This document shows, piece after piece, positions 27,164-64,000 of a DNA stretch of 64,000 nucleotides (the stretch's first letter is position 1; every line of letters starts with the position of its first letter). The notes below the pieces were generated by a model. That model saw only the letters and a list, made by a program, of their open reading frames with translations. It ran no database searches and had not been told where the DNA came from. The position numbers and the translations under genes were made by a program. Origin of the DNA: Patescibacteria group bacterium UBA924. GTDB taxonomy: Bacteria > Patescibacteriota > Microgenomatia > UBA1400 > PJMF01. The stretch covers positions 11,792 through 75,791 of the forward strand of contig DBDU01000019.1 of the NCBI GenBank assembly GCA_002293725.1. Reading direction: 5' to 3'.

Positions 27164-27787
27164 CTACCACTTTGAGATCATTGCTTGTGGTGTCTTGATT
27201 AAAATCTTGAGGTCGTTCCAGATTGAGTGATTATCTGCATACTTAGCATCCATCTTGGCTCGTTGCACAAACGGAACTTCATTTCGACCACTCGTTTGCC
27301 ATGGGCCAGATATACCTGGTTTAACGCTCAAGATCTTAGAGATGTACTCTTTGGTATCAGGGTACTTCTTGGCTTGCTCATCAAGCTCTTTACGAACGTA
27401 CGCACGAGGCCCAACCATGCTCATCTCGCCACGTAGAACGTTAAAAAGTTGGGGAAACTCATCGATCGTTAAAGAACGAAGGACTTTCCCTAACTTGGTA
27501 ATCCGGGGATCATTCTCCAGTTTCCAGTCACCGTTCTTAAATTTTTCTAGTAAAGCTTTATCGCGTTTATGTAAGATCTCGTCGGCGTCGTGCACCATCG
27601 AGCGAAACTTGTAGAGGAAGAACTCTTTACCGTTCTTTCCCACTCGTTTGTGGCGGAAAAGGACTGGCCAGCCAGAGTCGACGTAGATCAGGATTGGAAC
27701 TACAAACCAAATTGGCAAGAACAAGACCATTAAGCCTAGCGCGACTAGAATATCAAGAGCTCGTTTCTGATGTTCGTAACCCAGCAT
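27164..27787 (-). CDS. Polyprenyl-phosphate sugar-phosphate transferase (bacterial sugar transferase family, monotopic PGT, WbaP/PglC-like)
   Basis: 207 aa, one N-terminal membrane helix, conserved KFRSM...DE(F/L)PQL...G(E/D)MS(L/M)VGPR motifs. Confidence 0.88.
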   Translation of the reverse strand: MLGYEHQKRALDILVALGLMVLFLPIWFVVPILIYVDSGWPVLFRHKRVGKNGKEFFLYKFRSMVHDADEILHKRDKALLEKFKNGDWKLENDPRITKLGKVLRSLTIDEFPQLFNVLRGEMSMVGPRAYVRKELDEQAKKYPDTKEYISKILSVKPGISGPWQTSGRNEVPFVQRAKMDAKYADNHSIWNDLKILIKTPQAMISKW

Positions 27788-28927
27788 TTAAAGATATTCT
27801 TTCTTGCCTTCTTCTTTCAGTCGCTCAACGAGTTTCTTTACGTCTTGGCTGCGCTCTTTTGGTACGACTAAGAGGATTTCAGGTGTATCAATAATGATCA
27901 TGTCATTCACGCCGATTAAGCCAATTAATCTGCCATCAGTATGAATTAAGTTGTTCTCAGAGTTAATACACAATGCTTTGACAGAGTCTTCGTCGCTGAC
28001 AGTGACGTTTCCCACTAAGTCTTTTTGGGCAAGTTCGTAGACAACTTTCCAGTCACCTACGTCGTTCCAACCAAAGTCACCAGGAATCAACACTAAGTTA
28101 TCTGCTTTTTCAGAAATAGCGTAGTCAATCGAGATAGATTGAGCTTTTTTATAGATCTCTGGGAGAGCTTCGTGGAATTGAGCCGCAGATAAGCTACCGA
28201 GTTCTTTGGTAAGTTCATACATGTCTGGCATGTACTTGGCAAAAGCTTCTTGAAGTGCCTGGGCCGACCAGACGTACATGTTGGCATTCCAGAAGTACTT
28301 ACCAGTAGAAATGAAGGCGCGAGCGGTAGTAGCGTTTGGTTTCTCTGTAAAGCTGTCTACTTTGAAAACTGGCAACCCGGTGTGTGTTTTGCGCAAGTGA
28401 TCACCAATCTTGATATAGCCAAAGCCAGTTTCTGGTCCGGTGGGAGTAATTCCTACTGCTACCAGATTCTGCCCACCCTCAGCAACTTCAACAGCGGCTT
28501 CCATGACTTTGACAAACTCTTTTTCATCGGTAATGACATGGTCGGAAGCACTGTTGACGACAATTGCTTCGGGATCCTTAGACATGGCGTACAAGGCACC
28601 TGAAAGCATTGCCAAGGCAGTGTCTTTCTTATCGGGCTCGGCAATCACGTTTTCGGTCGGAACTTGCGGCAGGAGGTTTTGAATCTCGGCAATGTAGTTT
28701 TTGTTGGTGACAACGATGATCTGTTCCCAAGGAATGATTTTACTTAAACGACCAGCGGCTACCTGTACCATGGCGTCTTTGCTGGTAAGGCGTAAAAACT
28801 GTTTGGGGGTCGCATTTCGGGATTTTGGCCACAAGCGAGTGCCACCTCCTCCAGCGAGGATGACTCCAAAGACATGTTTATGATCTGACATACGATCCTT
28901 TCTCAGGCATGTGCAGCTCTCGTGCAA
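27788..28927 (-). CDS. manC: Mannose-1-phosphate guanylyltransferase (GDP-mannose pyrophosphorylase)
   Basis: VFGVILAGGGGTRLWPKSRNATPKQF nucleotidyltransferase motif, 379 aa (no cupin/PMI domain). The start is probably the internal Met at 28891. Confidence 0.82.
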   Translation of the reverse strand: MHESCTCLRKDRMSDHKHVFGVILAGGGGTRLWPKSRNATPKQFLRLTSKDAMVQVAAGRLSKIIPWEQIIVVTNKNYIAEIQNLLPQVPTENVIAEPDKKDTALAMLSGALYAMSKDPEAIVVNSASDHVITDEKEFVKVMEAAVEVAEGGQNLVAVGITPTGPETGFGYIKIGDHLRKTHTGLPVFKVDSFTEKPNATTARAFISTGKYFWNANMYVWSAQALQEAFAKYMPDMYELTKELGSLSAAQFHEALPEIYKKAQSISIDYAISEKADNLVLIPGDFGWNDVGDWKVVYELAQKDLVGNVTVSDEDSVKALCINSENNLIHTDGRLIGLIGVNDMIIIDTPEILLVVPKERSQDVKKLVERLKEEGKKEYL

Positions 28928-30071: not shown

Positions 30072-30075
30072 ATGA

Positions 30076-31200
30076 TTAAAGGGCTAGCGCGTTGGCGTAA
30101 ACTTTCAGGGTAGACTCAGCCATTTTTGACCACTGAAACTGTTTGGCATAGGTCTGTGCTGCTTTAAGATGCTTTTGCCGATCCATTGTTGCTGCAGTTT
30201 GGGCTGCTTGAACAAAAGAAGCGGTATCTTGGGGAGAAAAGAAAAGGGCGTGGTGTTGGTAGACCTCACGGAAAACTGGAATGTCTGAAGCTATAACAGG
30301 TGTGCCGGCTGCCATCGCTTCTAAACCGGTTAGCCCGAAACCCTCCGACAGCGAAGGTTGTACTAGGGCGGTTGCCTCACCTAAAAGTGCTCTGACTTTT
30401 TCGTCTGATTGATAACCCATAAACTCGACGCGATCTGTAAGCTTCTGTTCACTGACAAAGGCCGCAAGCCGCTGTTGAAAGGCTGAACGTGAGCTGACCA
30501 CTTTCAAAGAGTACTCGGGCAGTTCACGCAGTGCTTGAATCACAGTAGTCACATTTTTATGAGGGTACAGTGAGCCCAGATAGACAAAGTACTTTTGAAC
30601 AGCTTTTGGGGTAGGAATTGAGCTTTTTTCGAAAAAATGTGGAGCTACTCCTTCCGCAATAACCACGGTTTTCGCAACTGTTTCTGGATAGTACCGTGCA
30701 ACTTGTTTGGCCACAGTTTGAGTAGGCACAATTATGGCTGCTGCTTTGCGGATGGCATGACTAGCAGTTAAGCGATACATGACATACTTCGGCCAATACT
30801 GCCACTTTGGCAAGGTAGTTACCGCTGAGCCACGGTACTCGTGCCAAAGTAAATCATGAATAGTAACGACTACCTTTCCTGAATACATGAACGGGACATT
30901 AAAGTGTGGAATGTGAAGGATGTCTAATCTTTGTTGATTGAAAATACTCGGCATCTGTAGCTGTTCACCTAGCGAGTAATGTTGAACTGGCGCTAAGACA
31001 ACCTCCACTGTGCCTTCGTAAGAAACGTTTGCCAGAACCTGATCGGCTTGCTCTTGATCACTGAAGAAAAGTACCCACCTGTAGGGTGTCTGTCGTTGGA
31101 GTAGCTCCCGGACTAAATGTTCTGTATATCGCCCGATACCCGCGTGGCGTTGACCTGCCAAACGGCAGTCTATTCCAACACGGGAGATCGTTTGTGACAT
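30076..31200 (-). CDS. Glycosyltransferase family 4
   Basis: GIGRYTEHLVREL N-terminal motif and EGFGLTGLEAMAAGTPVIASD, 374 aa. Confidence 0.85.
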   Translation of the reverse strand: MSQTISRVGIDCRLAGQRHAGIGRYTEHLVRELLQRQTPYRWVLFFSDQEQADQVLANVSYEGTVEVVLAPVQHYSLGEQLQMPSIFNQQRLDILHIPHFNVPFMYSGKVVVTIHDLLWHEYRGSAVTTLPKWQYWPKYVMYRLTASHAIRKAAAIIVPTQTVAKQVARYYPETVAKTVVIAEGVAPHFFEKSSIPTPKAVQKYFVYLGSLYPHKNVTTVIQALRELPEYSLKVVSSRSAFQQRLAAFVSEQKLTDRVEFMGYQSDEKVRALLGEATALVQPSLSEGFGLTGLEAMAAGTPVIASDIPVFREVYQHHALFFSPQDTASFVQAAQTAATMDRQKHLKAAQTYAKQFQWSKMAESTLKVYANALAL

Positions 31201-31220
31201 GGCATTACAGACGCGAGGTC

Positions 31221-31676
31221 TTACTTACTTGATTTTTTGGTTTTGGCTGACTTCATTTTCTCAGCCAATAAGCCGACGCTCTCGGTGACTTCTCTGCGAG
31301 TAGCGACAGCCCCACCATTAGGACCACACTCATCGCAATCACAGTTACCTTCGCAGCAGTGATCACCGTGAGTAGCGATTAAGTCATCGAGCTCTTTTTC
31401 AAGCTTCTTGATTTTGCTTAACCGACCCATGTTTCCAATCATGACGTAGACGAAGTAGCCCACACCAACTAAGAACGCAGCGACAGGAATGTACTCCAGT
31501 AATGGGGGAACTTCAGTCAGCGTGGTTTGGTCGTAGAAGTAACGAAGCAACAAGTTTGGTAAGAACGCCGAAGCAAAGAGTGCCAACACAAATACTGCAA
31601 TCGACTCTACTGCGTAAATTACCTTATCTTGTCTCAATTGAGAGATCTTAAAACGAAGTTGGTCTGCACTGTGCAT
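31221..31676 (-). CDS. Small membrane protein with C-terminal Cys-rich motif (HCCEGNCDCDECGP)
   Basis: 151 aa. Two predicted transmembrane helices (IAVFVLALFASAFLPNLLL, VAAFLVGVGYFVYVMIG), a short coiled region (KIKKLEKELDDLI), then seven Cys in 14 residues. No family recognised. Confidence 0.45.
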   Translation of the reverse strand: MHSADQLRFKISQLRQDKVIYAVESIAVFVLALFASAFLPNLLLRYFYDQTTLTEVPPLLEYIPVAAFLVGVGYFVYVMIGNMGRLSKIKKLEKELDDLIATHGDHCCEGNCDCDECGPNGGAVATRREVTESVGLLAEKMKSAKTKKSSK

Positions 31677-31698
31677 GAGGCTCCTTTATCTTTATGTA

Positions 31699-32559
31699 TT
31701 ACCGTGTTTTGTACCAAACAAAGAGTTGTATCCCCCAGCGAACAAAGAAAGGATACTGGCTTTGATAGTGCTTATCAAAGTATTGTAGCATCGTCTGATA
31801 AAAGTGTGCTGACGTTCTCTGTGAGATTGAGCTATCGGTGTGACCACGACCTGATTTGTACTTGTGATGGACGACAGTAGCTTCTGGAATATAGATAACT
31901 TGATATCCATGATCACGGAAGCGTTTGCACCAGTCCAGGTCTTCGGCATACATGAAGAAGCGCTCATCTAAGTACCCTACTTTTTCCATGGCTGCAGTTC
32001 TAACCATCATCGCTGCCCCACTGCAGGCATCAATTGGGTGAACCTGATCTAACGACTGATAGGTTTGGTGATACTGGGCAAAAAGCTTGGATTTGGGAAA
32101 AGCTTTTGCTAAACCACTAAAGTAACTCAAACTGGCCCAAGGAGTGGGCTCACCGCGGTGACTGGCGGGATCTAACTTACCACTCGCTAGTAATACTTTC
32201 GGTGTGGTAACTGCTACATTGGGGTTAGCATCCATGTAATAGATTAATGCATCCAGCGCCGATTTCTCAGAAAACTCTATGTCTGAGTTAATCAGCATCG
32301 CATAACGACTTCTTACTTGCTTTAGTGCCAAGTTATTACCAACGGCAAAGCCTCCATTTTGGCTAGCTTCTAGCACTTTAACCCAGGAAAACTCTTCCTT
32401 TAACATCTTGACTGAGTGATCAGTACTGGAGTTATCTACGACGATTACTTCTACCTTGAACTTGGTTTTAGCCAGGTAGTATTTTTGAAGTGTTTTTAAC
32501 GCCAAAGAAATCCAGTCTGGCGTGTTGTAGTTTAAGAAGATCAGGGTGAGGTCAGTCAT
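31699..32559 (-). CDS. Glycosyltransferase family 2
   Basis: LTLIFLNYNTPDW...VVDNSSTDHS GT-A DxD-type motifs, 286 aa. Confidence 0.85.
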   Translation of the reverse strand: MTDLTLIFLNYNTPDWISLALKTLQKYYLAKTKFKVEVIVVDNSSTDHSVKMLKEEFSWVKVLEASQNGGFAVGNNLALKQVRSRYAMLINSDIEFSEKSALDALIYYMDANPNVAVTTPKVLLASGKLDPASHRGEPTPWASLSYFSGLAKAFPKSKLFAQYHQTYQSLDQVHPIDACSGAAMMVRTAAMEKVGYLDERFFMYAEDLDWCKRFRDHGYQVIYIPEATVVHHKYKSGRGHTDSSISQRTSAHFYQTMLQYFDKHYQSQYPFFVRWGIQLFVWYKTR

Positions 32560-33766
32560 GGTGTACGTTGGACTGGGCAGCCATCTTTAAGTAAATGCTA
32601 TCAAGTTTCTGAGCAATGAACTCCCAGTCATATTGAGTTTGAACAAACTCTTTCCCATTTTTGGCTAATTTTTTTTGAAGTTCCGGTTGTTGTAAGACTT
32701 TGACAGTTAAGTCGGCAAGCTCTTTGGCAGTGTTGCCAATCAAAACTTGCACACCATGCTCGACGCCTAAGCCTTCCACAGCCAACTGGGTAGCGACAAT
32801 CGGAGTGCCCGCGGCCATAGCTTCCAAGATTTTGTACCTAGTTCCTTTACCACTAAATACGGGAGCTACTAAGACATGTGCGCCGGTAAAAGCATCTCGA
32901 ATATCGGGGATACCACCAGTAATAGTGATGGAAGTATCTTTCTTTTGATACTCGAAGATTTCGGGTGTGGGAGCGTTACCCACAATCCATAGCTTGGAAG
33001 TAGGCAACTTTTTCTTGACGATTGGCCAGACATTTTCCACTAGGAACTTGACTGCTTCGACGTTAGGTAGCCAGTTAAAGGTGCCAACTGAAAGAACGGT
33101 TAAATCTTTAGGCAGCTTTCGTTCTTTTTGGGTAAACCATTTAACATCAACGCCGTTAGAAACAACCTCAATCTTTTTTGGTTCGTGAATCGTTTCGTCG
33201 ATGAAGCGCTTGTCTTCTTCACTCATCGTGATTAACTTGGTACAGCTGCGCCAATAGTGCTCTTCCCAACGCCGAATCTTAGCAATGTCGAGCTTCAGGA
33301 TCTGTCGAAGCGGCCAGAACTTAATCTTATCGGCATAGCTTTCATAACCGAGGTACTCGATGGTTTGTTCCACTAAAATAATAGGAATTTCTGTCTTAGG
33401 AATATTAGGCATCATGTAGAACGTCTCAGCGTGAATAACGTCGTACTTTTCCGCTTGCAACTCTTTTTCAACGGCGGCGATTGTTTGTGGGACATGGTTG
33501 CGGATGACTAAAAAAGGAAAGCTGGAAAAAGCAGTATGAAAGATATTACGGAAAGTGAATGGTTTTTGAGACCGCTTAAAGACACGAACCTTGGCGCAGT
33601 ACTTTTCTAATTCCGGAATATACTGTCGCTCACTCTCCTCCTTAATCAGTGCAAAGAGTGTGACCTCAAACTTCCCTGCTAACTTCTTGAGCAAGTTATA
33701 CGTTCTGATCTGCCCGCCCGATAATAACGGGTACGGCAAGTACGGCGTGAGCATTAAAATTTTCAT
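32552..33766 (-). CDS. Glycosyltransferase family 4
   Basis: MKILMLTPYLPYPLLSGGQIRTYNLLKKL and ILEAMAAGTPIVAT, 404 aa. Confidence 0.85.
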   Translation of the reverse strand: MKILMLTPYLPYPLLSGGQIRTYNLLKKLAGKFEVTLFALIKEESERQYIPELEKYCAKVRVFKRSQKPFTFRNIFHTAFSSFPFLVIRNHVPQTIAAVEKELQAEKYDVIHAETFYMMPNIPKTEIPIILVEQTIEYLGYESYADKIKFWPLRQILKLDIAKIRRWEEHYWRSCTKLITMSEEDKRFIDETIHEPKKIEVVSNGVDVKWFTQKERKLPKDLTVLSVGTFNWLPNVEAVKFLVENVWPIVKKKLPTSKLWIVGNAPTPEIFEYQKKDTSITITGGIPDIRDAFTGAHVLVAPVFSGKGTRYKILEAMAAGTPIVATQLAVEGLGVEHGVQVLIGNTAKELADLTVKVLQQPELQKKLAKNGKEFVQTQYDWEFIAQKLDSIYLKMAAQSNVHHD

Positions 33767-36988: not shown

Positions 36989-36991
36989 AGT

Positions 36992-37975: not shown

Positions 37976-37979
37976 ACGT

Positions 37980-38579: not shown

Positions 38580-38624
38580 AGTAGTAAGTATAGAGCATCT
38601 TGATTCGTCTTGGGCAGCCTGGTT

Positions 38625-41880: not shown

Positions 41881-41912
41881 GATTTAATTGTAGCGGTTTA
41901 GGGAGGGGTTGC

Positions 41913-44693: not shown

Positions 44694-44700
44694 GCGTGCT

Positions 44701-56160: not shown

Positions 56161-56163
56161 AGA

Positions 56164-56982: not shown

Positions 56983-56984
56983 AA

Positions 56985-57806
56985 CTATGGTTTATTGACG
57001 AACATTTTTAAGACGTGGTCAAAGAGGCGTTCTTGTTGATAGTCGTCATCATAAAATTTTTTAATTCGTAAGCGATAGTAAACTGCTAAGGTGTCTTGCA
57101 ACATGTTAAGGATGCCATTCTCACCCCATAACTTGATAGTGGTATTACTCCAATCTAAGTTAACCTTCACAGGAGCGTCGTAGATTCGTTGATATCCTAA
57201 ATGGTGGGCTACAGCTAAGATCTCAATGTCGAAGGCAAACTTTTTGACAATTAAACGAGGTAAAACTTTAGCTAATACTTGTCTTTTGTATGCTTTCAGG
57301 CCCGTCTGAGTATCTCTGACCTGTAAGCCGAAAAGAGTTTTAACTAATAAGTAATATCCATAGGTCAAAATTTTTCTTTGAATAGGATACTCAACGATAG
57401 AAGCAGGATGGAGCTTACTACCGATAATAATGTCGGCGTTATACCACCGCATATGCTCTAGGAGCATCGTGATCCCAAGTGGGTCGATGTCCATTCCACC
57501 ATCGATGAACGTTACAATGTCCCCTTTTGCTTCTTTCATTCCGTAGCGAACAGCGTAACCCTTTCCCCTATTCTCTTCATAGCCAATAGCTTTCAACCTT
57601 TTATCTTTGATCTTTTTCACTTCTTGAAGTGAGTTATCTTGTTTACTGCCGTCCACTACAGCAAGTACCTCGAACTCGTATGGCGTAGCGGCGAGCGTTT
57701 GAAGAATATTCTGTAAATCTTTATGAATTGTTTTTTCTTGTTTAAAGATGGGAACGATTACAGACAAAAAAGGCGGTTCATATTGCGTAGTCTGTGCGAG
57801 TTTCAT
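56985..57806 (-). CDS. GT2 polyprenyl-phosphate glycosyltransferase (DPM1/ArnC/GtrB-like, soluble form)
   Basis: LSVIVPIFKQEKTI...VVDGSKQD...RGKGYAVRYGMKEAKGDIVTFIDGGMDIDP pattern of polyprenyl-phosphate-sugar synthases, 273 aa. Confidence 0.65.
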   Translation of the reverse strand: MKLAQTTQYEPPFLSVIVPIFKQEKTIHKDLQNILQTLAATPYEFEVLAVVDGSKQDNSLQEVKKIKDKRLKAIGYEENRGKGYAVRYGMKEAKGDIVTFIDGGMDIDPLGITMLLEHMRWYNADIIIGSKLHPASIVEYPIQRKILTYGYYLLVKTLFGLQVRDTQTGLKAYKRQVLAKVLPRLIVKKFAFDIEILAVAHHLGYQRIYDAPVKVNLDWSNTTIKLWGENGILNMLQDTLAVYYRLRIKKFYDDDYQQERLFDHVLKMFVNKP

Positions 57807-59089
57807 GATTCTTTTTTCTCAACAATCTGAAGGGCATATCGAACATACCAAACTGTGAATGCCATGTGAAGAGCAGTTGCAGCTACCCGACTCAGTGCGG
57901 CGGCCATCAGACCGTAACTGGCAAGGAAAAGCAGATTTCCCAAACAGATGACGACGACCTGCAAGATGCCTCCTATCGAAAAGTAGTTAGGATGATCAAC
58001 GGCATAAAAGAAAGAGATCAACGGTACGATTGCTAAAGAAAGGAAGGCATTAAAAACGAGAATGATCATCGGAATTAACCCAGAAGAAAACTCTGGTCCT
58101 AAAGTGAAGAGAAGTACATACTGAGCAAACGGCAGGAAACACAGAAAACCAGTCGCTGCCATTAAGACAATGAGCAACGACTTACGAAGATAAGAGTGAA
58201 GTAGCTGAGAGGTTTGATAACGTGCCACTCGATTATTGAGAACGCCGCCCACCGCCGAGCTAACAAAAGTAATAAACAAAGCAATTCGCATTGAGGCAGA
58301 GTAGATACCAGTCTCAAATGTACTTAAGTACTTTTGGACGAAAAGTACATCGATGTTGGCAATTAACGTAGCAGCAATCATTCCTACGGCTGCGTGACCC
58401 ACGTGCTTCTTTACTTCTGCTCGAAGCGTTTGGGAACCGCTATGAGGAAGTATAAAAAACCACTGCCCAAAGAAAGTAGCAACAATGAGTGCGGCTACCA
58501 ACGGGGCCGCATAGTAAAAGACAGAGATAGACGTAGCGGTGGCATAGCCGGTAATACCAAGCAGCACAAAAGTAACGACTTTCATTGCAGCTTGGAGGAC
58601 ATTCAGAACTCCAACCCACTGAAACTTGTGCATAGCTGAAAGCACCAAGAAAACGTATTCGTAAATTATCAAGCCAATACTTCCAATTAAGGCTAAAAAT
58701 AAAAGTGTGGGATAGGGATAGTTAAGAAGATCTTGGGCAAATGGAATAGTCAGGCCGATGAGAGAAATTCCCACAATCGTTAATAGCAACTTCCACTGCG
58801 AGATTTGGGCGAGAAACTCTTTTTGTTTTTGAGGATCGTCGTGTAATCGAGGGAGTTGCCGGGTAATAATCGTCGCCAGTCCCATATCGCCCACTTTTGA
58901 GACGATCATCATGATGGCAGTTCCTACCGAGAAGATTCCGAACTGAACAGGACCTAGAACTCGAGAAACATAGATGAGCGCAATTGCCGATAGAACGGCG
59001 GTAGTTGTGGAGCCGATCGTTAAGAGTGCCGACTGTCGAACTGCCTGTGAGCTGAGAAGAAGCGTGTATGCACGACGCAGTTGAGTCAT
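57803..59089 (-). CDS. wzx: Wzx-type polysaccharide flippase (MOP superfamily)
   Basis: 428 aa, about 12 transmembrane helices, N-terminal LLTIGSTTTAVLSAIALIYVSRVLGPVQFGIF is typical of Wzx/polysaccharide biosynthesis proteins. Confidence 0.75.
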   Translation of the reverse strand: MTQLRRAYTLLLSSQAVRQSALLTIGSTTTAVLSAIALIYVSRVLGPVQFGIFSVGTAIMMIVSKVGDMGLATIITRQLPRLHDDPQKQKEFLAQISQWKLLLTIVGISLIGLTIPFAQDLLNYPYPTLLFLALIGSIGLIIYEYVFLVLSAMHKFQWVGVLNVLQAAMKVVTFVLLGITGYATATSISVFYYAAPLVAALIVATFFGQWFFILPHSGSQTLRAEVKKHVGHAAVGMIAATLIANIDVLFVQKYLSTFETGIYSASMRIALFITFVSSAVGGVLNNRVARYQTSQLLHSYLRKSLLIVLMAATGFLCFLPFAQYVLLFTLGPEFSSGLIPMIILVFNAFLSLAIVPLISFFYAVDHPNYFSIGGILQVVVICLGNLLFLASYGLMAAALSRVAATALHMAFTVWYVRYALQIVEKKES

Positions 59090-59093
59090 AGGA

Positions 59094-60002
59094 TTATGAC
59101 AGTGATCTAAAGTACTCCACTGTCTTTTGCAAGCCTTCTTGAATCGCCACTTTGGCTTTCCAACCTAAAAGCTCAGTTGCTTTAGAAGAGTCAGCAACTA
59201 AGACAAGTGGGTCACCTGGCCGATTCGGAAAGTTATGAATATTTGCTTTCTTTCCTAAAAGCTCTTCGAGCATAGTGATAACTTCGCGAACCATGGTTGG
59301 CCGGTTGGTAGATAAGTTAAAGTAGTGGTACTTTTCAGGTTGATTCTGACAAAGTGCTATTGCTTGCAAGTGAGCATCCACCACATCAGTGATGTAAATA
59401 AAGTCGCGTTGGTGTTCACCACTCCCCCAGACAGTTACTTCTTGCCCTGTCTCAATCTGGTGGATAAAACGAGGAATTGCATGAGACTCTGGTTCGTGGT
59501 GTTCTTCAGGTCCGTATAAATTGAAGTAACGTAAGCCAACACCTGTCATTTGATATGAAGCAACATATGAGCTTACTAAAGCCTCCATAGCAAGCTTGGT
59601 CATACCGTATGGATTAATCGGTAGAGTTCGATCATCTTCTTTAATCGGAGTGTGCAATGGTTCACCATACACGGCTGCACTTGAAGAGAATATAAAGTTC
59701 TTTACCCCATTCTGTCTCATTGCTTCCAGGACTGAAACAGTACCGGAAATATTAACGTCGACAAACCGTTGGGGAAACTTGACGGACTCACCAGCTTCAA
59801 TCAGTGCCGCTAAGTGAAACACCGTATCAGCATCTGTAATTACTTCAAGCATTTTTTGGCTGTCACAGATATCAGCGATAACTGTTTCTACGTCGGGATT
59901 GGGTTTGAGGTCGACATTTTTAACGCTGTGACCCTCGGCGATCAATGCTTTACATAGGTGATGGCCTAAGAATCCAGACCCACCAGTAACAATTACTTTT
60001 GC
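59094..60002 (-). CDS. NAD-dependent nucleotide-sugar epimerase/dehydratase (GalE/UDP-sugar 4-epimerase-like SDR)
   Basis: MAKVIVTGGSGFLGHHL Rossmann motif, catalytic YxxxK (YGMTKLAMEAL). Start likely at 60002. Confidence 0.8.
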   Translation of the reverse strand, partial: AKVIVTGGSGFLGHHLCKALIAEGHSVKNVDLKPNPDVETVIADICDSQKMLEVITDADTVFHLAALIEAGESVKFPQRFVDVNISGTVSVLEAMRQNGVKNFIFSSSAAVYGEPLHTPIKEDDRTLPINPYGMTKLAMEALVSSYVASYQMTGVGLRYFNLYGPEEHHEPESHAIPRFIHQIETGQEVTVWGSGEHQRDFIYITDVVDAHLQAIALCQNQPEKYHYFNLSTNRPTMVREVITMLEELLGKKANIHNFPNRPGDPLVLVADSSKATELLGWKAKVAIQEGLQKTVEYFRSLS

Positions 60003-60013
60003 CATGCTCACTC

Positions 60014-61270
60014 CTAACTTAACCAATAGCCTTGGACAAATAAGACTGTATTGATTGCTAGACTAATTACAAATACTCCATTTACTACCCAGAACAGCCT
60101 TGGCCTTGATTCCAGGTAACTCATAAGCAGCAAGTATAGCGGAAAACAGACTAAGATGTAGCGAGGCATACTTGAGAACGTTCCAGTAACAGTTGGCATT
60201 AAGAAAGCACCTAAAGCAAAAAGAACATACGAAAGTCGCACTCTCCAAAGTGAGAAAAACAAGGCTATTGCGCCTCCAATTCCAGTTAGGAACTCCAGAA
60301 AGTACGTGTAGTACCCCCAACTTTGTGGTGGTACAGTCAGTAAAATCCGTAAAGACCGCCAGGCAACTTGCGGATACAAAACGATACTTTCCTGTCTTCC
60401 GGCCCCAAACTCACTTTGGACATGAAGGAAGTACAGTGGATCACCAAAGGTGTTCGCTAAGTATGCTGTATAAGCGAGTAAGCCTACTCCCCCTAGCAAG
60501 ATCAACAAGATCTCTCGCCAGCAGCTATCAGCAAAGCTTCTGAGCTGAGAAAAACGCAACTGTTTTGTTGCTGATTTAGGATGAGTGTTTCGCCATTGGA
60601 GCCACAGCTCAACCAGTAGCGCTGGTAAGAGGAAAATGCCAACCACTCGTGTAGCTGTAGCAATAATCGTTAAGCCAGCTGCAAGCGCCCACTGTTGTCT
60701 TCGGGCGGTATAAAAGGCAGCGATAATAGTGAAGAAAAAGAGTGACTCGGTATATAACGCACCAAAGAAAAATGATGTAGGAAAGATGAGTAATAAAGTA
60801 AGTCCAACCCAGGCACGGCGAACGCCATACTCAGATTTAAGAAAAGCGAACCACAACAGAAATGAGGCCAAAGCAGCTATATTGCTTACCAATAACCCTA
60901 CCAGTAAGGTATTCATTTCGCCGCCGCTGAGGATAAAAAGAGTTCTCAGGATGACAAACGGGAAGAACGGGAAAAATGCCTGAATTAAACCTGTACCGAT
61001 ATAACCTTTTTCGGCAATTGTTAGATAGTGTACGCCGTCAAAGTTGGCCCAACTGAAAAGCCACTGTGGCAAGTTATATCTTGGTAAGATGGCATCGGCA
61101 TAGGGGAAACTTGGATCGTAGAGAATCAAGTGCCCAGCAAGTGCTCCCAATAAAAAAAGCCCAACGCGCCAGCCTAAAAAAGCAACCACAATTTTTATAA
61201 CTTCTTGATTAGTCAGACCGAAAATGCTTTTTTTTATACTAGCTGTCATGTTTCTCTCGTCTCTGTGCAA
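60014..61270 (-). CDS. GT-C fold membrane (manno)syltransferase-like protein (PIG-V/DUF2029-like)
   Basis: 418 aa, about 10 transmembrane helices, loop motif WANFDGVHYLTIAEKGY. Start may be the Met at 61249. Confidence 0.5.
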   Translation of the reverse strand: MHRDERNMTASIKKSIFGLTNQEVIKIVVAFLGWRVGLFLLGALAGHLILYDPSFPYADAILPRYNLPQWLFSWANFDGVHYLTIAEKGYIGTGLIQAFFPFFPFVILRTLFILSGGEMNTLLVGLLVSNIAALASFLLWFAFLKSEYGVRRAWVGLTLLLIFPTSFFFGALYTESLFFFTIIAAFYTARRQQWALAAGLTIIATATRVVGIFLLPALLVELWLQWRNTHPKSATKQLRFSQLRSFADSCWREILLILLGGVGLLAYTAYLANTFGDPLYFLHVQSEFGAGRQESIVLYPQVAWRSLRILLTVPPQSWGYYTYFLEFLTGIGGAIALFFSLWRVRLSYVLFALGAFLMPTVTGTFSSMPRYILVCFPLYLLLMSYLESRPRLFWVVNGVFVISLAINTVLFVQGYWLS

Positions 61271-62972
61271 AGAAAAGCGACGCTACAGTACAGAGTGCAG
61301 TGGCAAAGGTAAGGAAGGAAAGGGCATTTCCTAATACTCTTGGCCAAGTCCATTGAGTGAACTGACTATGAACGGTAAAAGTTCCTGGTTCGAGACGGTA
61401 GGCAATCCTCCCTCCGATGAGTTGGTCATCTTCGTATGAGACTGGTTGAGAGGTACTATTACTTTCGATAGTTGTTTGCCAACCAGGAAAGTTCATGGTT
61501 GGCTCTGCAATCAAAGCTGGGCTGCTGACAATGGCTTGATAAGAGCGTCGACTTCCATTCCAACTAAGGACATTTATTTCAGCCTGACCGCTGAGTACTG
61601 TTGGTACTGGTTGCCAGTCTCCTAGTTCGCTAAACGTAAAGTTTCGTGCAAGGTTTTCATTACTTGTGGTGGTACTTTGCTCAAAAAGGTCATAGTGAAG
61701 TGACGGTTTATTAATGTACCCAACGGGAGCAAGCCGAAGCAGGATGACAGTCTGAATGACCACCAGTAAGACTAAGAGGTACTTTTGCCAGGCAATGTTT
61801 CTTTGAAAGACATATCCAACTAAGAAAGTATTAGCAATTAAAGCCAGTAGGCCCAGTCGCCAAGGGAATTGAATAAATCGGACAAGTGGTGTGGTTTGCC
61901 AGAGTGAGTGAGTTACTGTAGTTTGCAGCAAAGTAAGCAGGATAGTTGCTATAAAGAAAATCAAGAAAGTGCTTTGATCTTTGGTGTGGCGATGCTTCTT
62001 GCCTAGCCTGTCGGCGATAACAAGACCAATACTACAGCCGATTGCTCCAAGCTGAGTCAGACCGAGTGCAAAAGAGAGTGAGTCGACAGAGCCAACATAC
62101 GAGTAGCCAAACTGGATAGAGCTACTTACTAGCTGTCTAAAAGTGGGAAAGTGTTGAGCATACTGTTGTGCTAGTGCGCTCCCGCCTACCACAATACTTG
62201 ATTGCTCAGCTAATGCCGGAATCCAGAACCAAACGGAGAGTCCTAAACCGAAGAGTAAAGCAGTGATTGTTCTGAGTAAGCCGTCTTGTGTGCTTCGCTG
62301 TCGCCAGAGACTCCACCCCAGAATGAGTGGAGTGGCAAAGAGAACGGTGACGTTGTGTGAAAGGAAGAATGCTCCCAAAATACTGCCACCCAAAACACTT
62401 TCCAGTGAGAAAATGCGAGAAAGTAAGGACCGTTGTTCGATAACTGCTTTGCGGTCTGAACTGTACTCAACCCACAACAGCCAACAAAGAATCAGAGATA
62501 GGGCCATTACTTCACCCACGTTCCCTCTGAAAATAATCGACTGAAAAAGATATGGTGAAGCAGCAAAACTCGTACTTGCTACGACTCTCCCCCAAAACGG
62601 AACTCCCAACTTAGTTAACCATAACCAGGTAGCGTAAATCGCGACGAAAACAGAGCTAAACATAATTATTTTAAAGGTAAAGTGGTAGGGTATCTTTGCT
62701 ACAGAAAATGGCAACGAAACCAAGTTTGCGAGTGGATAGTTATAGTTAAAAACGGGATAGCCCAAACGATGATAGAGGTTTGGAGCGAAACGAGGGGGAA
62801 ACTGCCCCTCCCTGATTGCTATCTTATAGTTGGCAAAACGAGCCAGGTGATTTTCCCCGTCGTGTGTATCTGGTACTCCAGGATGAAAGTATGCTTTGCA
62901 CGAAATAAACGTCAGAACGAGGCAAAAAAACAGTCTACTAAGCTGAACAACTGATAAGCGTGGACGTCTCAT
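61239..62972 (-). CDS. Large polytopic membrane protein, putative GT-C glycosyltransferase with C-terminal transmembrane anchor
   Basis: 577 aa. Acidic first-loop motif PDTHDGENHLARF, about 11 transmembrane helices, an extracytoplasmic domain, and a terminal transmembrane helix (ALSFLTFATALCTVASLFF). Confidence 0.45.
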   Translation of the reverse strand: MRRPRLSVVQLSRLFFCLVLTFISCKAYFHPGVPDTHDGENHLARFANYKIAIREGQFPPRFAPNLYHRLGYPVFNYNYPLANLVSLPFSVAKIPYHFTFKIIMFSSVFVAIYATWLWLTKLGVPFWGRVVASTSFAASPYLFQSIIFRGNVGEVMALSLILCWLLWVEYSSDRKAVIEQRSLLSRIFSLESVLGGSILGAFFLSHNVTVLFATPLILGWSLWRQRSTQDGLLRTITALLFGLGLSVWFWIPALAEQSSIVVGGSALAQQYAQHFPTFRQLVSSSIQFGYSYVGSVDSLSFALGLTQLGAIGCSIGLVIADRLGKKHRHTKDQSTFLIFFIATILLTLLQTTVTHSLWQTTPLVRFIQFPWRLGLLALIANTFLVGYVFQRNIAWQKYLLVLLVVIQTVILLRLAPVGYINKPSLHYDLFEQSTTTSNENLARNFTFSELGDWQPVPTVLSGQAEINVLSWNGSRRSYQAIVSSPALIAEPTMNFPGWQTTIESNSTSQPVSYEDDQLIGGRIAYRLEPGTFTVHSQFTQWTWPRVLGNALSFLTFATALCTVASLFFAQRREKHDS

Positions 62973-64000
62973 GACAAGTTGAGCACTTTTTTATACACAG
63001 CAACTGTTTCTTCGGCTACTTTGGTCCAAGAAAACTGCTGACTCCAAGTATACGCAGCTTTAATCACCTCTTGGCGATGAGTTTTACTCCACTTGAGAAC
63101 GGTGAGAACGGCATCAGCAAATGCCTCGGCTTCGGGCAGTACAAGTTGAGCGTGTTCTCCACCGACTTCAATCAAAGAGGAGTTCTTTGACGCGATGACT
63201 GGAACTTTTGCTTGCATTGCTTCTAGAACTGGTAATCCAAACCCTTCATACAGTGAAGGTTGAATGTACGCGACTGCACCTGAGTAAATAGCGGCTAGCG
63301 AATCGAGGTCATCAACTCCAAGGTTAGTTATAAACTGGACTCGATTAGGAACGTCACTTAACGCCACTTGAGCCTCGATCCAACGCCACTCAGGAATGTC
63401 TTGCTCAGTAAAGTTTTTTCCAACACATACCAGATGAATGTCTTCAGGTAAGTACTTCAGCATTTTCACGAGCTGAGGAATGTTCTTGTTGTAGTTAATA
63501 TCACCCACATACAAGACATATTGTGCCGGAAGACCCAGTTTCTGGCGTACAGTATCTTGCATTTTTTCTGATTGAGCCAAGATTCCAGGTGGGGCGGCTA
63601 AATAAATCGGATGAACCAAGTTAGGTTTTACTTTCAAGTACTTGATAATATCTTGACGTGACGCTTGTGAGTCAGTAATAACTGCCTCTACGCTTTGCAG
63701 CGCAAAAGCCTGTTTATAGAAACGAAGCTTTCCTTTTCGCCCTGGTTTATAGTGTTCTGGAAACTTAAGAGGAATTACGTCGTGTACGGTTACTACTGTT
63801 TTAAACTTCCGAAATAAAGGAAGAGTAGAAAAAAAGAGGTCAAAGAACGGATAGTGAATAAGCGTGGATTTGGCGTCGTACTGTTGAATATTTTTGTGAA
63901 AGTGACGCACATCTTCTCTATTTTCAACTGGCACGACATTTAGATCTTCCCTTTTTTCCAGCTCTTGCTTAAGCAACCGAGTGTAGGTACCAATTCCGCG
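62969..64000 (-). CDS. Glycosyltransferase family 4, N-terminus beyond the window end
   Basis: EGFGLPVLEAMQAKVPVIASKN. The reading frame continues upstream past 63976 (…GIGTYTRLLKQELEK, a GT4 N-terminal motif), so the gene is truncated by the window. Confidence 0.8.
   Translation of the reverse strand, partial: RGIGTYTRLLKQELEKREDLNVVPVENREDVRHFHKNIQQYDAKSTLIHYPFFDLFFSTLPLFRKFKTVVTVHDVIPLKFPEHYKPGRKGKLRFYKQAFALQSVEAVITDSQASRQDIIKYLKVKPNLVHPIYLAAPPGILAQSEKMQDTVRQKLGLPAQYVLYVGDINYNKNIPQLVKMLKYLPEDIHLVCVGKNFTEQDIPEWRWIEAQVALSDVPNRVQFITNLGVDDLDSLAAIYSGAVAYIQPSLYEGFGLPVLEAMQAKVPVIASKNSSLIEVGGEHAQLVLPEAEAFADAVLTVLKWSKTHRQEVIKAAYTWSQQFSWTKVAEETVAVYKKVLNLS

Follow-up and report, generated by a model that had tools for sequence, protein, structure and literature searches.

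The closest analogue of the locus described here appears to be the lipomannan/arabinogalactan assembly of Corynebacteriales, in which many GT-C enzymes act serially outside the membrane on a GT4-made primer, using polyprenyl-phosphate donors from a DPM1-like GT2 (PMC3485146). In streptococci, GacI and GacJ are a characterised Und-P-GlcNAc synthase pair that operates with the GT-C enzyme GacL and with GacK, a precedent for a Wzx-family flippase of an Und-P-sugar (bioRxiv 10.1101/180810). The Pgf and GtrB/PgtC2 systems of S. mutans O-glycosylate Ser/Thr-rich disordered protein regions (PMC12041528).

Here, we have analysed a window of 64,000 nucleotides (the whole stretch of DNA considered) from an uncultured member of the Patescibacteria (Microgenomates type) whose genome measures ~1.2 Mb. 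Six GT-C genes lie in the 37-kb locus that begins at 27164, whereas the 27 kb upstream, occupied by division and cell-wall genes, contain none. Past the window end the locus goes on for at least 9 kb, and five further GT-C genes there bring the density to at least 11 within ~39-40 kb. The part inside the window is probably most of a core-genome envelope-glycan assembly region at least 46 kb long. An initial annotation, all of whose coordinates match ORFs, had drawn the locus as a 37-kb block downstream of a polyprenyl-phosphate sugar phosphotransferase (PGT) and ManC. This outline has to be redrawn: every locus gene except one (44701-45714) is on the minus strand, so that the PGT is the final gene and PGT and ManC sit at the 3' end, and RuvC, RuvA and RuvB (Pfam) occupy 38625-40745, inside the locus. 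ArgS is interleaved in at least eight relatives, and such interleaved housekeeping genes indicate core genome rather than an island. GC content is 39-42% over 48-58 kb vs 44-48% in the rest of the window. The genes of the locus are as follows:

27164-27787, minus: small polyprenyl-phosphate hexose-1-phosphate transferase (PGT), last gene; Bac_transf 206.7 bits, NCBIfam EPS_sugtrans/WbaP C-terminal domain 244 bits
27788-28927, minus: mannose-1-phosphate guanylyltransferase, ManC-like; NTP_transferase 134.9 bits, ManC_GMP_beta-helix 63.3 bits
28878-30071, minus: GT4; Pfam Glycos_transf_1/Glyco_trans_1_4 group, above cut-off
30076-31200, minus: GT4; Pfam GT family match above cut-off
31221-31676, minus: 151-aa protein with two estimated TM helices, no assigned function
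31699-32559, minus: GT2; Glycos_transf_2 above cut-off
32552-33766, minus: GT4; Pfam GT family match above cut-off
33763-35190, minus: GT-C "PMT2a", PMT_2/PMT-like, ~11 TM; PMT_2 60.5 bits, PMT 43.8 bits
35153-36988, minus: Wzy_C-family protein (polymerase, ligase or O-oligosaccharyltransferase type); Wzy_C 36.1 bits, cut-off 31.7
36992-37975, minus: GT2 with C-terminal TM; Pfam
37980-38579, minus: hexapeptide acyltransferase; Pfam
40726-41880, minus: GT4; Glycos_transf_1 95.8 bits
41913-43112, minus: GT4; Glycos_transf_1 98.7 bits
43045-44634, minus: GT-C "PMT2b", PMT_2-like, DE motif after TM1; PMT_2 32.5 bits
44701-45714, plus: extended-SDR nucleotide-sugar epimerase/dehydratase; Epimerase 191 bits, GDP_Man_Dehyd 186 bits
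45711-47315, minus: two-domain GT-A/GT2, 534 aa; Glycos_transf_2 90.2 bits in two stretches
47279-48835, minus: GT-C "PMT2c", PMT_2-like, DE motif after TM1; PMT_2 57.3 bits
48832-49950, minus: 6-TM protein with a weak C-terminal TIG-like domain; TIG E 0.0063, under cut-off
49947-52220, minus: GT-C, AftD-N-terminal-like, 757 aa; GT-C_AftD 53.9 bits, profile positions 25-514 of 661
52171-56160, minus: methyltransferase, hexapeptide acyltransferase, GT4 (53317-54567), methyltransferase and CgeB-like Glyco_trans_1_2 protein (55078-56160); Pfam
56164-56982, minus: GT2 "GT2b", SpsA/chondroitin-synthase-like; Glycos_transf_2 120.7 bits, PDB matches
56985-57806, minus: DPM1/DPMS/GtrB-like GT2; PDB 5mlz, NCBIfam
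57803-59089, minus: Wzx-family flippase, ~13 TM; Polysacc_synt 74.5 bits
59094-60026, minus: GalE-like UDP-hexose 4-epimerase, cassette member; Epimerase 220 bits, NCBIfam galE 204 bits (cut-off 262)
60014-61270, minus: GT-C, PIG-V/Gpi18-like, cassette member; PF04188 in homologs, AF2 and Foldseek
61239-62972, minus: GT-C, PTPS_related/AftD-like, cassette member; PF10131 or PF11847 in homologs, AF2 and Foldseek
62969-64000, minus: GT4, cassette member, cut by the window end; Glycos_transf_1 85.7 bits

The initial annotation had correctly named the PGT, ManC, the CgeB-like glycosyltransferase, the Wzx flippase, the Wzy_C-family protein and five GT2 enzymes (31699, 36992, 45711, 56164, 56985; Pfam), whereas its nine GT4 enzymes come down to seven (starts 28878, 30076, 32552, 40726, 41913, 53317, 62969). 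The last of these is complete in L006 (8916-10004), and its full length is 362 aa with a start at about window-equivalent 64057. The ManC-like protein, which is predicted to supply GDP-mannose, has no PMI domain and matches NCBIfam GMP_PMI with 303 bits over profile positions 3-353 of 467. NCBIfam matches of the SDR at 44701 are all under equivalog cut-offs. The GT2 at 56985, likewise recognised earlier as DPM1/ArnC/GtrB-like, has the Pyrococcus Dol-P-Man synthase 5mlz as its closest PDB relative (E 1.8e-10, residues 10-184), followed by GtrB and ArnC, and matches NCBIfam PgfS, AglJ, ArnC and DPhHxTase, all far under equivalog cut-offs. It is a candidate polyprenyl-phosphate sugar synthase in which neither a TM helix nor an amphipathic anchor was detected, whereas GtrB, CsbB and ArnC have C-terminal TM helices. 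Its gene overlaps that of the Wzx-family protein by 4 bp. The family matches thus support a donor supply in which this GT2 and ManC could provide polyprenyl-phosphate sugars. Neither GtrA nor DUF2304 was found at this genome's locus, while in relatives a GT2 and DUF2304 pair follows the epimerase; a lipid-anchor enzyme was not identified at the locus either.

All six membrane proteins listed as GT-C are GT-C-fold enzymes, not transporters, four of them through Pfam (PMT_2 in three, GT-C_AftD in one) and two through AlphaFold and Foldseek. The Wzy_C protein, counted earlier as a seventh, shows no sequence or profile relation to the GT-C set (hhalign <2%), and the 6-TM protein at 48832 is not GT-C by sequence (<1% to every GT-C family). 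The six were also called paralogous, but their best pairwise BLASTP E is 0.13 and they are linked at the profile-profile level only, in an hhalign network that connects x3 with PMT2c (94%), the PTPS-like family with x3 (93%), x1 with PMT2a (84%) and PMT2b with both PMT2c and x2 (67%); Wzx, Wzy_C and the 6-TM protein, which served as negative controls, all stay below 2%. True paralogs occur in the extension, among four of its five GT-C genes (BLASTP 1e-13 to 1e-74). The DE motif is seen in PMT2b as LWLDEAAQ, and in x0, x2 and x3 orthologs the conservation of the DE and GDxK motifs is 90% or more. Sequence searches of the PDB gave no match for PMT2a or for the protein at 49947, which is, by its Pfam match, a predicted AftD-like GT-C with a large C-terminal part outside the membrane and a final TM. 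YfhO was not detected in this genome's locus.

The proteins at 60014 and 61239 have neither Pfam nor PDB sequence matches, the former staying under the PF04188 threshold that its homologs pass. AF2 modelled both with confidence (pLDDT 91.4 and pTM 0.91 for 60014; 86.5 and 0.90 for 61239), and the top matches of the models are GT-C enzymes only. Foldseek-PDB ranks 1-36 for 60014 and 1-25 for 61239 are all GT-C-fold proteins; ALG9, ALG3, ALG12 and PIG-M are among the matches of 60014, AftD aligns to 61239 with an rmsd of 6.1 over 429 columns, and AftD, AftA, EmbB, EmbC, PimE and ArnT are among the matches of the pair. The TM-scores are modest (0.4-0.5) and the shared part is the GT-C core only, so that sub-family and substrate are not readable from Foldseek. 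Conserved acidic residues sit in the first outer loop of both: H37 and D38 are invariant in the PTPS-like family (D38 in 46 sequences), as is D78 of the WANFDGVHY motif in 46 PIG-V-like sequences. The 61239 protein ends in a beta-sandwich and a final TM; the beta-sandwich resembles CBM and glycoside-hydrolase accessory domains (Foldseek ranks 38-48), a weak pointer to a carbohydrate acceptor.

Using the 61239 protein as anchor, we found a relative encoded in 351 GTDB species genomes, labelled Pacebacteria, Woesebacteria or Microgenomates. Neighbours were counted over the best 80 loci (31-50% identity): GT2x in 72, x3 in 68, GT4 in 62, x2 in 61, the epimerase in 60, the PIG-V-like gene in 48, x1 in 45, the DPMS-like GT2 in 31 and GT2b, which recurs beside the cassette, in 16. 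Sixteen of 39 DPMS-like copies adjoin a GT-C or polytopic ORF. The resulting cassette is collinear, spanning window positions 56164-64000 and ~9 kb past the window end, and comprises four PMT_2-like paralogs, a GT2, a GT4, PTPS/AftD-like and PIG-V-like GT-C, a GalE-like epimerase and a DPMS-like GT2. It begins with a GT2-GT-C fusion and three PMT_2-like GT-C paralogs, the first followed by a PimE-like GT-C on the opposite strand, and continues with the GT2, the GT4, the PTPS/AftD-like GT-C, the PIG-V-like GT-C and the epimerase; the DPMS-like GT2 and the Wzx-family flippase are nearby. Among the 33 loci with full flanks, a four-gene run is contiguous in 25 and a seven-gene run in 17, and the median is six GT-C per 21.6 kb. 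The locus is "unusually rich" in GT-C, as first described, when set against bacteria in general, but not within its own lineage, where such density is the norm. In three genomes (L012, L017, L059), the PTPS-like and PIG-V-like genes are one fused ORF. Folds and enzyme families, gene order, its conservation and this fusion are direct observations. A multi-GT-C cassette conserved in distant relatives, together with the fusion of two members, argues for a real multi-step pathway, in line with the multi-step extracytoplasmic glycosylation proposed at the outset.

We consider it likely that the region has two layers and encodes the stepwise, extracytoplasmic assembly of a glycan from polyprenyl-phosphate sugars; the donors, topology of action, order of steps and acceptor we infer from knowledge of the families. 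Layer 1 would be the lineage-conserved cassette. Cytoplasmic GT4 and GT2 enzymes would build a lipid-linked primer, ManC and the epimerase would provide GDP-Man and UDP-hexoses, and the DPMS-like GT2 would charge undecaprenyl phosphate with monosaccharides. After a flip of these donors across the membrane, the six or seven distinct GT-C enzymes would elongate and branch a surface glycoconjugate on its outer face, with the PTPS-like and PIG-V-like enzymes probably forming a complex. The product we favour is a lipoglycan or a polysaccharide linked to the wall, made in a way that would resemble lipomannan, LAM and arabinogalactan assembly in Corynebacteriales. Layer 2 (27164-56160) would be a more variable Wzx/Wzy-type heteropolysaccharide region. 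Besides the PGT, Wzy_C, the GT4 and GT2 enzymes and the acyl- and methyltransferases, it has another four GT-C enzymes, which would attach side chains outside the membrane. The eleven-GT-C locus and the shared cassette together point to an undescribed, elaborate cell-surface sugar coat.

The likeness to Corynebacteriales (PimE, MptA/B/C, EmbA/B/C, AftA-D, with Ppm1 or DPA donors) lies in the many distinct GT-C enzymes and the DPM1-like GT2, and the GT2 and DUF2304 pair of relatives resembles PpgS/Rv3632. However, the locus has no sequence-level orthologs of Mpt, Emb or Aft beyond the Pfam AftD N-terminal domain of the 49947 protein, itself half the length of AftD; the arabinose pathway (DprE, UbiA) is missing; and the host, whose genome is 1.2 Mb, is a monoderm that lacks a mycolate envelope. 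Mycobacterial lipomannan, LAM and arabinogalactan genes are spread across several loci, whereas the genes here are clustered in one cassette. The eukaryotic ER Dol-P-Man/Glc series (ALG3/9/12, ALG6/8/10, PIG-M/V/B/Z) is likewise a sequential, one-sugar-per-enzyme line of distinct GT-C on a lipid-linked glycan, and the 60014 homologs carry the PIG-V/Gpi18 Pfam domain, but the locus is bacterial and has no OST/STT3-type or GPI-transamidase-type transfer step. In GacI/J/K/L, CsbB-GtcA-YfhO and GtrA/B/C, a GT2 makes an Und-P-sugar, a DUF2304 partner or Wzx-family flippase helps, and a GT-C modifies a wall polymer outside. The GT2 and DUF2304 pair of relatives and the overlapping Wzx-family and DPMS-like genes of the window recall this arrangement, although GacL, CsbB and Gtr systems use one GT-C for one sugar, against 6 to 11 here. 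The analogies to CsbB-YfhO and Pmt first drawn are valid, but the Corynebacteriales multi-GT-C pathways, GacI/J/K/L and Pgf are closer.

A serious alternative, though one we hold to be rather unlikely, is protein O-glycosylation, in which the DPMS-like GT2 makes Und-P-sugars that GT-C enzymes transfer to surface or membrane proteins, at extracytoplasmic stretches rich in Ser/Thr/Pro. The acceptors would be pilins, S-layer or adhesin-like proteins, enzymes of division and of the wall, and perhaps the NHL-fn3 protein. The several GT-C would extend the glycan or serve separate protein classes, and a role as PglL-type O-oligosaccharyltransferase is conceivable for the Wzy_C protein. The alternative is serious because the streptococcal combination of GT2, epimerase and GT-C acts on proteins and because, among solved structures, the flagellin O-GlcNAc transferase GmaR comes closest to the cassette GT2x, with SunS next. 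The GT2, GalE-like epimerase and two adjacent GT-C mirror the S. mutans Pgf operon (PgfS, PgfE, PgfM1, PgfM2: a GT-A enzyme, a 4-epimerase and two GT-C genes side by side) and GtrB/PgtC2, and PgfS is among the top NCBIfam matches of 56985 (E 4e-14). PMT_2 and PMT matches (the latter passed by 33763) and a DE motif after TM1 in several locus proteins are shared with actinobacterial and eukaryotic Pmt (GT39), and S/T/P-rich tracts occur in three proteins encoded in the window (see below). Known bacterial GT-C protein O-glycosylation, however, employs one or two GT-C enzymes, far fewer than the 6 to 11 distinct families here; PgfM and PgtC2 are YfhO-family, as no locus protein is; the PMT_4TMC and MIR domains of true GT39 Pmt are absent from all locus proteins (Pfam); and no conserved acceptor gene was seen inside the cassette in the survey of related loci. 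The NHL linker is Pro-rich with just 16% Ser/Thr, and the CBM-like matches hint at carbohydrate instead.

Conventional Wzx/Wzy synthesis of a capsule or O-antigen-like polymer, with a single repeat unit assembled on Und-PP in the cytoplasm, then flipped and polymerised, and the GT-C enzymes as minor, occasional Gtr/YfhO-type side-chain decorators, would account for the PGT, the Wzx-family and Wzy_C proteins, the many GT4 and GT2 enzymes, the acyl- and methyltransferases and the low-GC variable segment (52171-56160), and probably fits the window from 27 to 56 kb. As an explanation of the whole it is very unlikely: the window has six GT-C and the extended locus eleven, the GT-C-dense portion is the conserved rather than the variable one across relatives of 31-50% identity, and a Pfam scan of all ORFs found neither Wzz/PCP nor an LCP ligase. 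These points speak against a conventional single-polymerase O-antigen cluster. We regard as highly improbable an ArnT-like modification of membrane lipids or lipid-linked peptidoglycan precursors that would change charge or protect against antimicrobials or host defence with no chain building. ArnT belongs to PMT_2 and appears among the structural matches, and the GT-C genes are found together with SDR epimerase/dehydratase and GT2 genes, a combination also seen in the arn operon; yet the aminotransferase, formyltransferase and deformylase of the Arn pathway are all absent, no NCBIfam ArnT match was found at the locus, and many GT-C families in fixed order with a two-member fusion suit chain building better.

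Outside the cassette, the GT2 at 45711 is a conserved partner of PMT2c in L010, L013, L016, L048 and L059, and the order of the GT4 pair at 40726 and 41913, adjoining RuvC and RuvA, is repeated in L082. The NHL propeller protein noted at first exists as an NHL and fn3 protein with a Pro/Ser-rich linker at 21970-23574, 3.6 kb from the locus past RecO and a DUF4012 gene; it is a possible glycosylation target by proximity only. The Wzy_C protein has a long Pro/Ser/Thr-rich extracytoplasmic loop (residues 373-397 are 72% S/T/P), and S/T/P-rich tracts are also present in the NHL protein and in the protein encoded at 23623-24435.

The initial annotation had listed six membrane proteins between 27164 and the window end as GT-C-fold glycosyltransferases. 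All six stand as members of that fold, and together with genes lying just past the window end they bring the region to at least 11 GT-C genes in ~39 kb. Several of these genes belong to a collinear cassette that is conserved in related genomes. From 27164 to the window end, 34 open reading frames (ORFs) are close-packed or overlapping, all on the minus strand except 44701-45714. Pfam scans, which took in all ORFs between 21970 and the end of the window, count five GT2 enzymes, one CgeB-like Glyco_trans_1_2 protein, two hexapeptide acyltransferases, two methyltransferases, two SDR epimerase/dehydratases and seven GT4 enzymes, where nine GT4 had been claimed. They agree with the earlier assignments of the polyprenyl-phosphate sugar phosphotransferase (PGT), ManC, the five GT2, the CgeB-like protein, Wzx and Wzy_C. 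The PGT gene had been placed ahead of the array, but in transcriptional order it comes at the very end. The array itself is confirmed, with RuvC, RuvA and RuvB embedded in it.

Landmark features of the window
1-21713, minus strand: complete dcw cluster (MraZ, MraW, PBP, Mur ligases, MraY, FtsW, MurG, FtsQ-like, FtsA, FtsZ)
21970-23574: NHL + fn3 protein, anchored at its N terminus
24453-25007, minus strand: short RecO, 184 aa, RecO_N domain only
25007-27124, minus strand: DUF4012 protein, 705 aa, single TM helix, directly adjoining the PGT gene
from 27164, minus strand: PGT (Bac_transf, 206.7 bits)
from 27788, minus strand: ManC-like guanylyltransferase (Pfam; NCBIfam GMP domain, 303 bits)
31221-31676, minus strand: protein of 151 aa, two TM helices, C terminus drawn out into a Cys-rich tail, HGDHCCEGNCDCDECG
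35153-36988, minus strand: Wzy_C protein (Wzy_C, 36.1 bits)
38625-40745, minus strand: RuvC, RuvA and RuvB, mid-array among glycosylation genes
48832-49950, minus strand: 372-aa protein with ~6 TM helices and a weak C-terminal TIG/IPT-like domain
from 57803, minus strand: Wzx-family protein (Polysacc_synt, 74.5 bits)

The DUF4012 protein could be a partner in polysaccharide export or attachment. The 31221-31676 protein has no family match, and the window contains no tRNA genes or Rfam matches.

GT-C enzymes are polytopic (~8-13 TM helices), their first extracytoplasmic loop carries one or more conserved acidic residues, and they use lipid-phosphate-linked sugar donors on the extracytoplasmic face. 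Four of the six listed proteins exceed Pfam cut-offs for GT-C families: the PMT_2-like proteins at 33763 (PMT_2, 60.5 bits; PMT, PF02366, 43.8 bits), 43045 (32.5 bits) and 47279 (57.3 bits), and the protein at 49947, which matches positions 25-514 of the 661-position GT-C_AftD profile (PF11847, 53.9 bits). The latter has 757 aa; AftD joins a GT-C_AftD N-terminal domain to a large periplasmic region with CBMs, for a total of ~1,400 aa. The remaining two, at 60014 and 61239, gave no Pfam match up to E 10, and PDB searches with single sequences and profiles returned nothing useful for these two or for 33763 and 49947. Among 8,000 candidates scored per search, 928 homologs of 60014 and 452 of 61239 were found; in precomputed annotation, many of the former, 45-60% identical, carry PF04188 (PIG-V/Gpi18), and many of the latter carry PF10131/PF11847 (PTPS_related / GT-C_AftD). 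Hereafter, we call them the PIG-V-like and the PTPS-like enzyme, respectively.

AlphaFold2 models built from 46-sequence alignments are confident for both the PIG-V-like enzyme (pLDDT 91.4, pTM 0.91) and the PTPS-like enzyme (pLDDT 86.5, pTM 0.90). In Foldseek searches of the PDB, ranks 1-36 for the PIG-V-like model are all GT-C folds (STT3, ALG9, AglB, PglB, ArnT, AftA, EmbC, PIG-M, PIG-U, ALG3, Pmt4, ALG12, PimE), the first other fold appearing at probability 0.06. Ranks 1-25 for the PTPS-like model are likewise all GT-C (STT3, AftD, ArnT, Pmt4, AglB, PglB, Pmt1/2, ALG3, EmbB), with AftD superposing at rmsd 6.1 over 429 columns. TM-scores are modest for both models (0.4-0.5), as expected because only the GT-C core is common to the matches, and for neither model does a non-GT-C fold exceed probability 0.1. 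For these two proteins, the predicted structures thus exclude a transporter or non-GT fold, which the initial annotation had named as grounds for refutation, and the GT-C claim therefore stands for all six proteins, four by Pfam and two by predicted structure. The acidic signature is present as well: D38 (with H37) is invariant across 46 PTPS-like sequences, D78 across 46 PIG-V-like sequences, and a DE pair follows TM1 in the sequences of 43045 and 47279.

The GT-C families of the region are linked to one another by hhalign at 57-94%. The six in-window enzymes had been called paralogous, but their best pairwise BLASTP E value is 0.13, and there are no close paralogs among them. The Wzy_C protein, counted as a seventh member, shows no profile relation to the set (hhalign <2%), nor does the Wzx-family protein (hhalign <2%). 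The 48832-49950 protein (6 TM) is ruled out as a GT-C member at the same level; its gene is flanked by two GT-C genes with a 4-bp overlap with each, and in two related loci (L010 and L016) its homologs adjoin the homolog of 47279.

The source contig around the PTPS-like gene is treated here as a locus (L006) in which position 10001 corresponds to window 62972. It shows that the window end truncates the last GT4, whose full length is 362 aa. The genes past the window end span ~9 kb and bring the glycan region to at least 46 kb of a ~1.2-Mb genome.

Genes past the window end (source-contig locus L006, 1-10000)
GT2x: GT2 enzyme, 261 aa
x1, x2 and x3: three tandem polytopic PMT_2-like GT-C enzymes, 544-591 aa
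x0: 829 aa, a GT2 domain fused to a fourth copy of the x1-x3 membrane domain; this stretch takes in the C-terminal part of the protein
YEYPP protein: polytopic, 467 aa, opposite strand, named for its YEYPP motif

The term paralogous is valid for x0-x3, which are related at BLASTP E values of 1e-13 to 1e-74 and at 100% by hhalign. The PMT_2 score is above the cut-off of 26.1 for x3 (32.5 bits) and sub-threshold for x2 (20.6 bits), and the family motifs, a DE pair after TM1 and GDxK, are each conserved to 90% or more among orthologs of x0, x2 and x3. The YEYPP protein has no Pfam match, and hhalign ties it only weakly to the PTPS family (57%).

A profile scan across GTDB, with each species represented by a single genome, found relatives of the PTPS-like enzyme encoded in 351 genomes. 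The family as a whole comprises 12,244 representatives at 50% identity with E up to 1e-3, or 2,684 with E up to 1e-30. The best 80 of the 351 loci are only 31-50% identical and are labelled Pacebacteria/Paceibacterota, Woesebacteria, Microgenomates or unclassified Patescibacteria. Matching all proteins of the window and its continuation against the ORFs of these 80 loci defines a collinear cassette in the order [GT2-GT-C x0] - x1 - (YEYPP) - x2 - x3 - GT2x - GT4 - PTPS-like - PIG-V-like - GalE-like epimerase. The most frequent neighbour of the PTPS-like gene is GT2x (72/80 best loci), followed by x3 (68/80), GT4 (62/80), x2 (61/80), the epimerase (60/80), the PIG-V-like gene (48/80), x1 (45/80), and x0 and the GT2 at 56985-57806 (31/80 each). 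Full 10-kb flanks are available for 33 loci. In 25 of these, x3-GT2x-GT4-PTPS form an unbroken run; in 17, so do all seven genes from x2 through the epimerase. GT-C homologs in the 33 loci number 4-8 per 21.6 kb (median 6). The cassette is also present in dozens of TPA MAGs titled 'uncultured Pseudomonadales bacterium' (L011, L013, L017-L019 and others), a taxonomic label that is probably wrong.

Single ORFs of 937-961 aa encode the PTPS-like and PIG-V-like enzymes as one fused protein in three genomes (L012 9944-12784; L017 3293-6106; L059 10010-12895). Residues 12-532 of the L059 fusion match the PTPS-like enzyme (E 1e-110) and residues 559-961 the PIG-V-like enzyme (E 3e-73). By the Rosetta-stone argument, such a fusion suggests that the two enzymes act together; the two families appear to work as a pair. 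Several database homologs of 917-951 aa resemble these fusions.

The cassette is interleaved with housekeeping genes. At least eight relatives have a ~590-aa ORF between x1 and x2 (L025 3056-4822; also L024, L028, L033, L050, L075, L077, L082), and the L025 copy reads as an arginyl-tRNA synthetase from sequence motifs. One of these relatives, L082, also has the window order PMT2b-GT4-GT4-RuvC-RuvA, in which PMT2b is the GT-C at 43045; the arrangement is therefore old. The interleaved housekeeping genes and the deep synteny, including this common order, lead us to reject a horizontally acquired island for the cassette and place the region in the core genome.

In the comparison with relatives, which the initial annotation had proposed, the multi-GT-C cassette is conserved, while most of 27164-56160 is unconserved around the anchor gene. 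Between 48 and 58 kb, GC content is only 39-42%, whereas other parts of the window have 44-48%. This segment, which comprises the AftD-like GT-C, methyl- and acyltransferases, a GT4, the CgeB-like gene and a pair of GT2 genes, lacks conservation in relatives. Poor conservation and low GC together fit a variable, serotype-like part, and the 48-58 kb segment may be an insertion of that kind. The Wzx/Wzy pathway comprises an initiating PGT, a Wzx flippase and a Wzy-type polymerase, with a Wzz/PCP regulator and, in monoderms, an LCP wall ligase. The core trio is present here by Pfam; no Wzz/PCP or LytR_cpsA_psr (LCP) match was found in scans of 52 of the 55 tabulated window ORFs, including all from 21970 on. 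We read the 27-56 kb part as a Wzx/Wzy-type heteropolysaccharide pathway with GT-C enzymes that add side chains.

Polyprenyl-phosphate sugar synthases are anchored by C-terminal TM helices or by a small partner (DPM3, Ppm1-D1, GacJ/DUF2304). Among four GT2 domains compared with solved structures (56985, 56164, GT2x and the x0 N-terminal domain), only that at 56985-57806 is closest to such synthases. Its best PDB match is the Pyrococcus Dol-P-Man synthase (DPMS; 5mlz, E 1.8e-10) over residues 10-184, the catalytic domain, followed by GtrB and ArnC, which bears out its earlier description as DPM1/ArnC/GtrB-like. Its NCBIfam matches (PgfS, AglJ, ArnC, Dol-P-hexose transferase) all fall far under their equivalog cut-offs. 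GT2x is closest to the flagellin O-GlcNAc transferase GmaR and to SunS, and the 56164 and x0 domains resemble chondroitin synthase and SpsA-type enzymes. The DPMS-like GT2 (273 aa) has no predicted TM segment, its gene and the Wzx-family gene share 4 bp, and neither DUF2304 nor GtrA was found in the window or its continuation. In 19 related loci, a ~225-aa GT2 followed by a ~115-aa ORF with 2-5 predicted TM segments lies downstream of the conserved epimerase; in one such pair (L021 13736-14736), the small ORF is DUF2304 (PF10066, 57.3 bits) and the GT2 is 25% identical to the DPMS-like GT2. In S. pyogenes, the GT2 GacI makes GlcNAc-P-Und and is stimulated by the DUF2304 protein GacJ, the Wzx-family protein GacK aids membrane crossing, and the GT-C GacL attaches the sugar to the wall polysaccharide (bioRxiv 10.1101/180810). 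The pairs in relatives have the same arrangement as GacI/GacJ and as PpgS/Rv3632 of M. tuberculosis, whereas the GT2 of this genome is coupled to the Wzx-family gene, without DUF2304. The GalE-like epimerase scores 204 bits in NCBIfam, under the equivalog cut-off.

To the observed folds, families, outer-loop acidic residues (D38, D78, DE), conserved gene order and fusion, we add a putative route modelled on what is established for GT-C enzymes and Wzx/Wzy pathways. Lipid-linked primers or repeat units would be built in the cytoplasm by GT4 and GT2 enzymes, and the DPMS-like GT2 would load undecaprenyl phosphate with monosaccharides; GDP-Man and UDP-hexoses would come from ManC and the GalE-like epimerase. 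The loaded donors would then be flipped across the membrane to its outer face, where distinct GT-C enzymes would each add sugars in one linkage type.

Six or seven distinct GT-C families in fixed order make a chain-building pattern rather than decoration with single sugars, as in mycobacterial LM/LAM/arabinogalactan (PMC3485146) and in the ALG/PIG series of the ER. We favour a lipoglycan or wall-linked polysaccharide as the product. Two observations hint at it: a C-terminal beta-sandwich in the PTPS-like model that resembles CBM and glycoside-hydrolase accessory domains (Foldseek ranks 38-48), and weak NCBIfam matches of the cassette GT4 to glycolipid-anchor glycosyltransferases. The serious rival is a machinery for protein O-glycosylation. 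The S. mutans Pgf operon has a matching composition (a GT-A enzyme, a 4-epimerase and two GT-C), the targets of streptococcal GtrB/PgtC2 systems are disordered, Ser/Thr-rich stretches of membrane proteins (PMC12041528), and GT2x resembles protein/peptide glycosyltransferases. S/T/P-rich tracts are present in the NHL protein linker, the 23623-24435 protein and the Wzy_C loop, but the NHL linker is mostly proline, with Ser/Thr at only 16%, and no conserved acceptor gene accompanies the cassette. The GT-C family count is also far above that of known protein O-glycosylation systems, and YfhO features are absent. Pmt enzymes (GT39) pair the PMT N-terminal domain with a C-terminal PMT_4TMC domain, plus MIR in eukaryotes; Pfam at E up to 0.01 found neither PMT_4TMC nor MIR in any of the proteins. 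A conventional O-antigen or capsule cluster with a single polymerase would share the PGT, Wzx and Wzy_C trio, and ArnT-like lipid modification would agree with the ArnT matches of both models; set against the serial GT-C families, each is much less likely.

Going beyond the favoured lipoglycan or wall-linked polysaccharide, we tentatively suggest a fuller picture, which we hold to be possible but less likely than not: the cassette of six or seven GT-C, one GT4, GT2 enzymes and an epimerase, its PTPS-like/PIG-V-like pair working as a complex, would make a chemically undescribed glycoconjugate specific to the envelope of the Microgenomates-type lineage. Such a molecule would be the CPR equivalent of lipoarabinomannan or of teichoic acids, and central to envelope cohesion or host attachment in these ultrasmall episymbionts. 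If so, a 1.2-Mb genome would spend ~1% of its genes and ~4% of its DNA on this glycoconjugate.

Patescibacteria have lost most biosynthetic pathways, and to our knowledge their envelope chemistry is essentially uncharted. In the passages available from it, a recent Saccharibacteria study calls the glycosylation processes of that group unexplored, and the corresponding passages of general Patescibacteria papers leave glycosylation unmentioned. Full-text literature searches on GT-C enzymes, glycosyltransferases and related systems in CPR/Patescibacteria turned up no account of the cassette, nor any description of GT-C enzymes in Patescibacteria. The enzymology of GT-C proteins and polyprenyl-phosphate sugars is already well known, so a known principle is extended and no new one introduced. 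What appears to be new is the scale (at least 11 GT-C, ~1% of the genes of the 1.2-Mb genome by an estimated gene total), the cassette of several GT-C genes that Microgenomates-type Patescibacteria conserve, the pairing of PTPS-like and PIG-V-like enzymes with its fusions, and the GT2-GT-C fusion. The retention of so many GT-C enzymes in so small a genome implies strong selection for an elaborate surface glycan.

That eleven or more GT-C genes share one core-genome region, several of them in a cassette common to relatives 31-50% identical, provides gene targets for finding the glycan and a handle on CPR envelope chemistry. The product and acceptor that we infer belong to uncultivated organisms, and the cassette offers a way to ask whether the glycan mediates host attachment or phage or immune evasion. 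It is also a way into two GT-C families, PTPS_related-like and bacterial PIG-V-like, for which we found no solved structure and no characterised member.

Some smaller features of the region deserve mention. The ~160-aa loop of the Wzy_C protein (residues ~310-470), between TM blocks, is very Pro/Ser/Thr-rich, PSPLTPTEKPSPSPSPKPTQLP. RuvC and its upstream GT4 share 20 bp of overlap. The dcw cluster adjoins the glycan region on the same strand, and the C-terminal linker of its FtsZ is 68% S/T/P.
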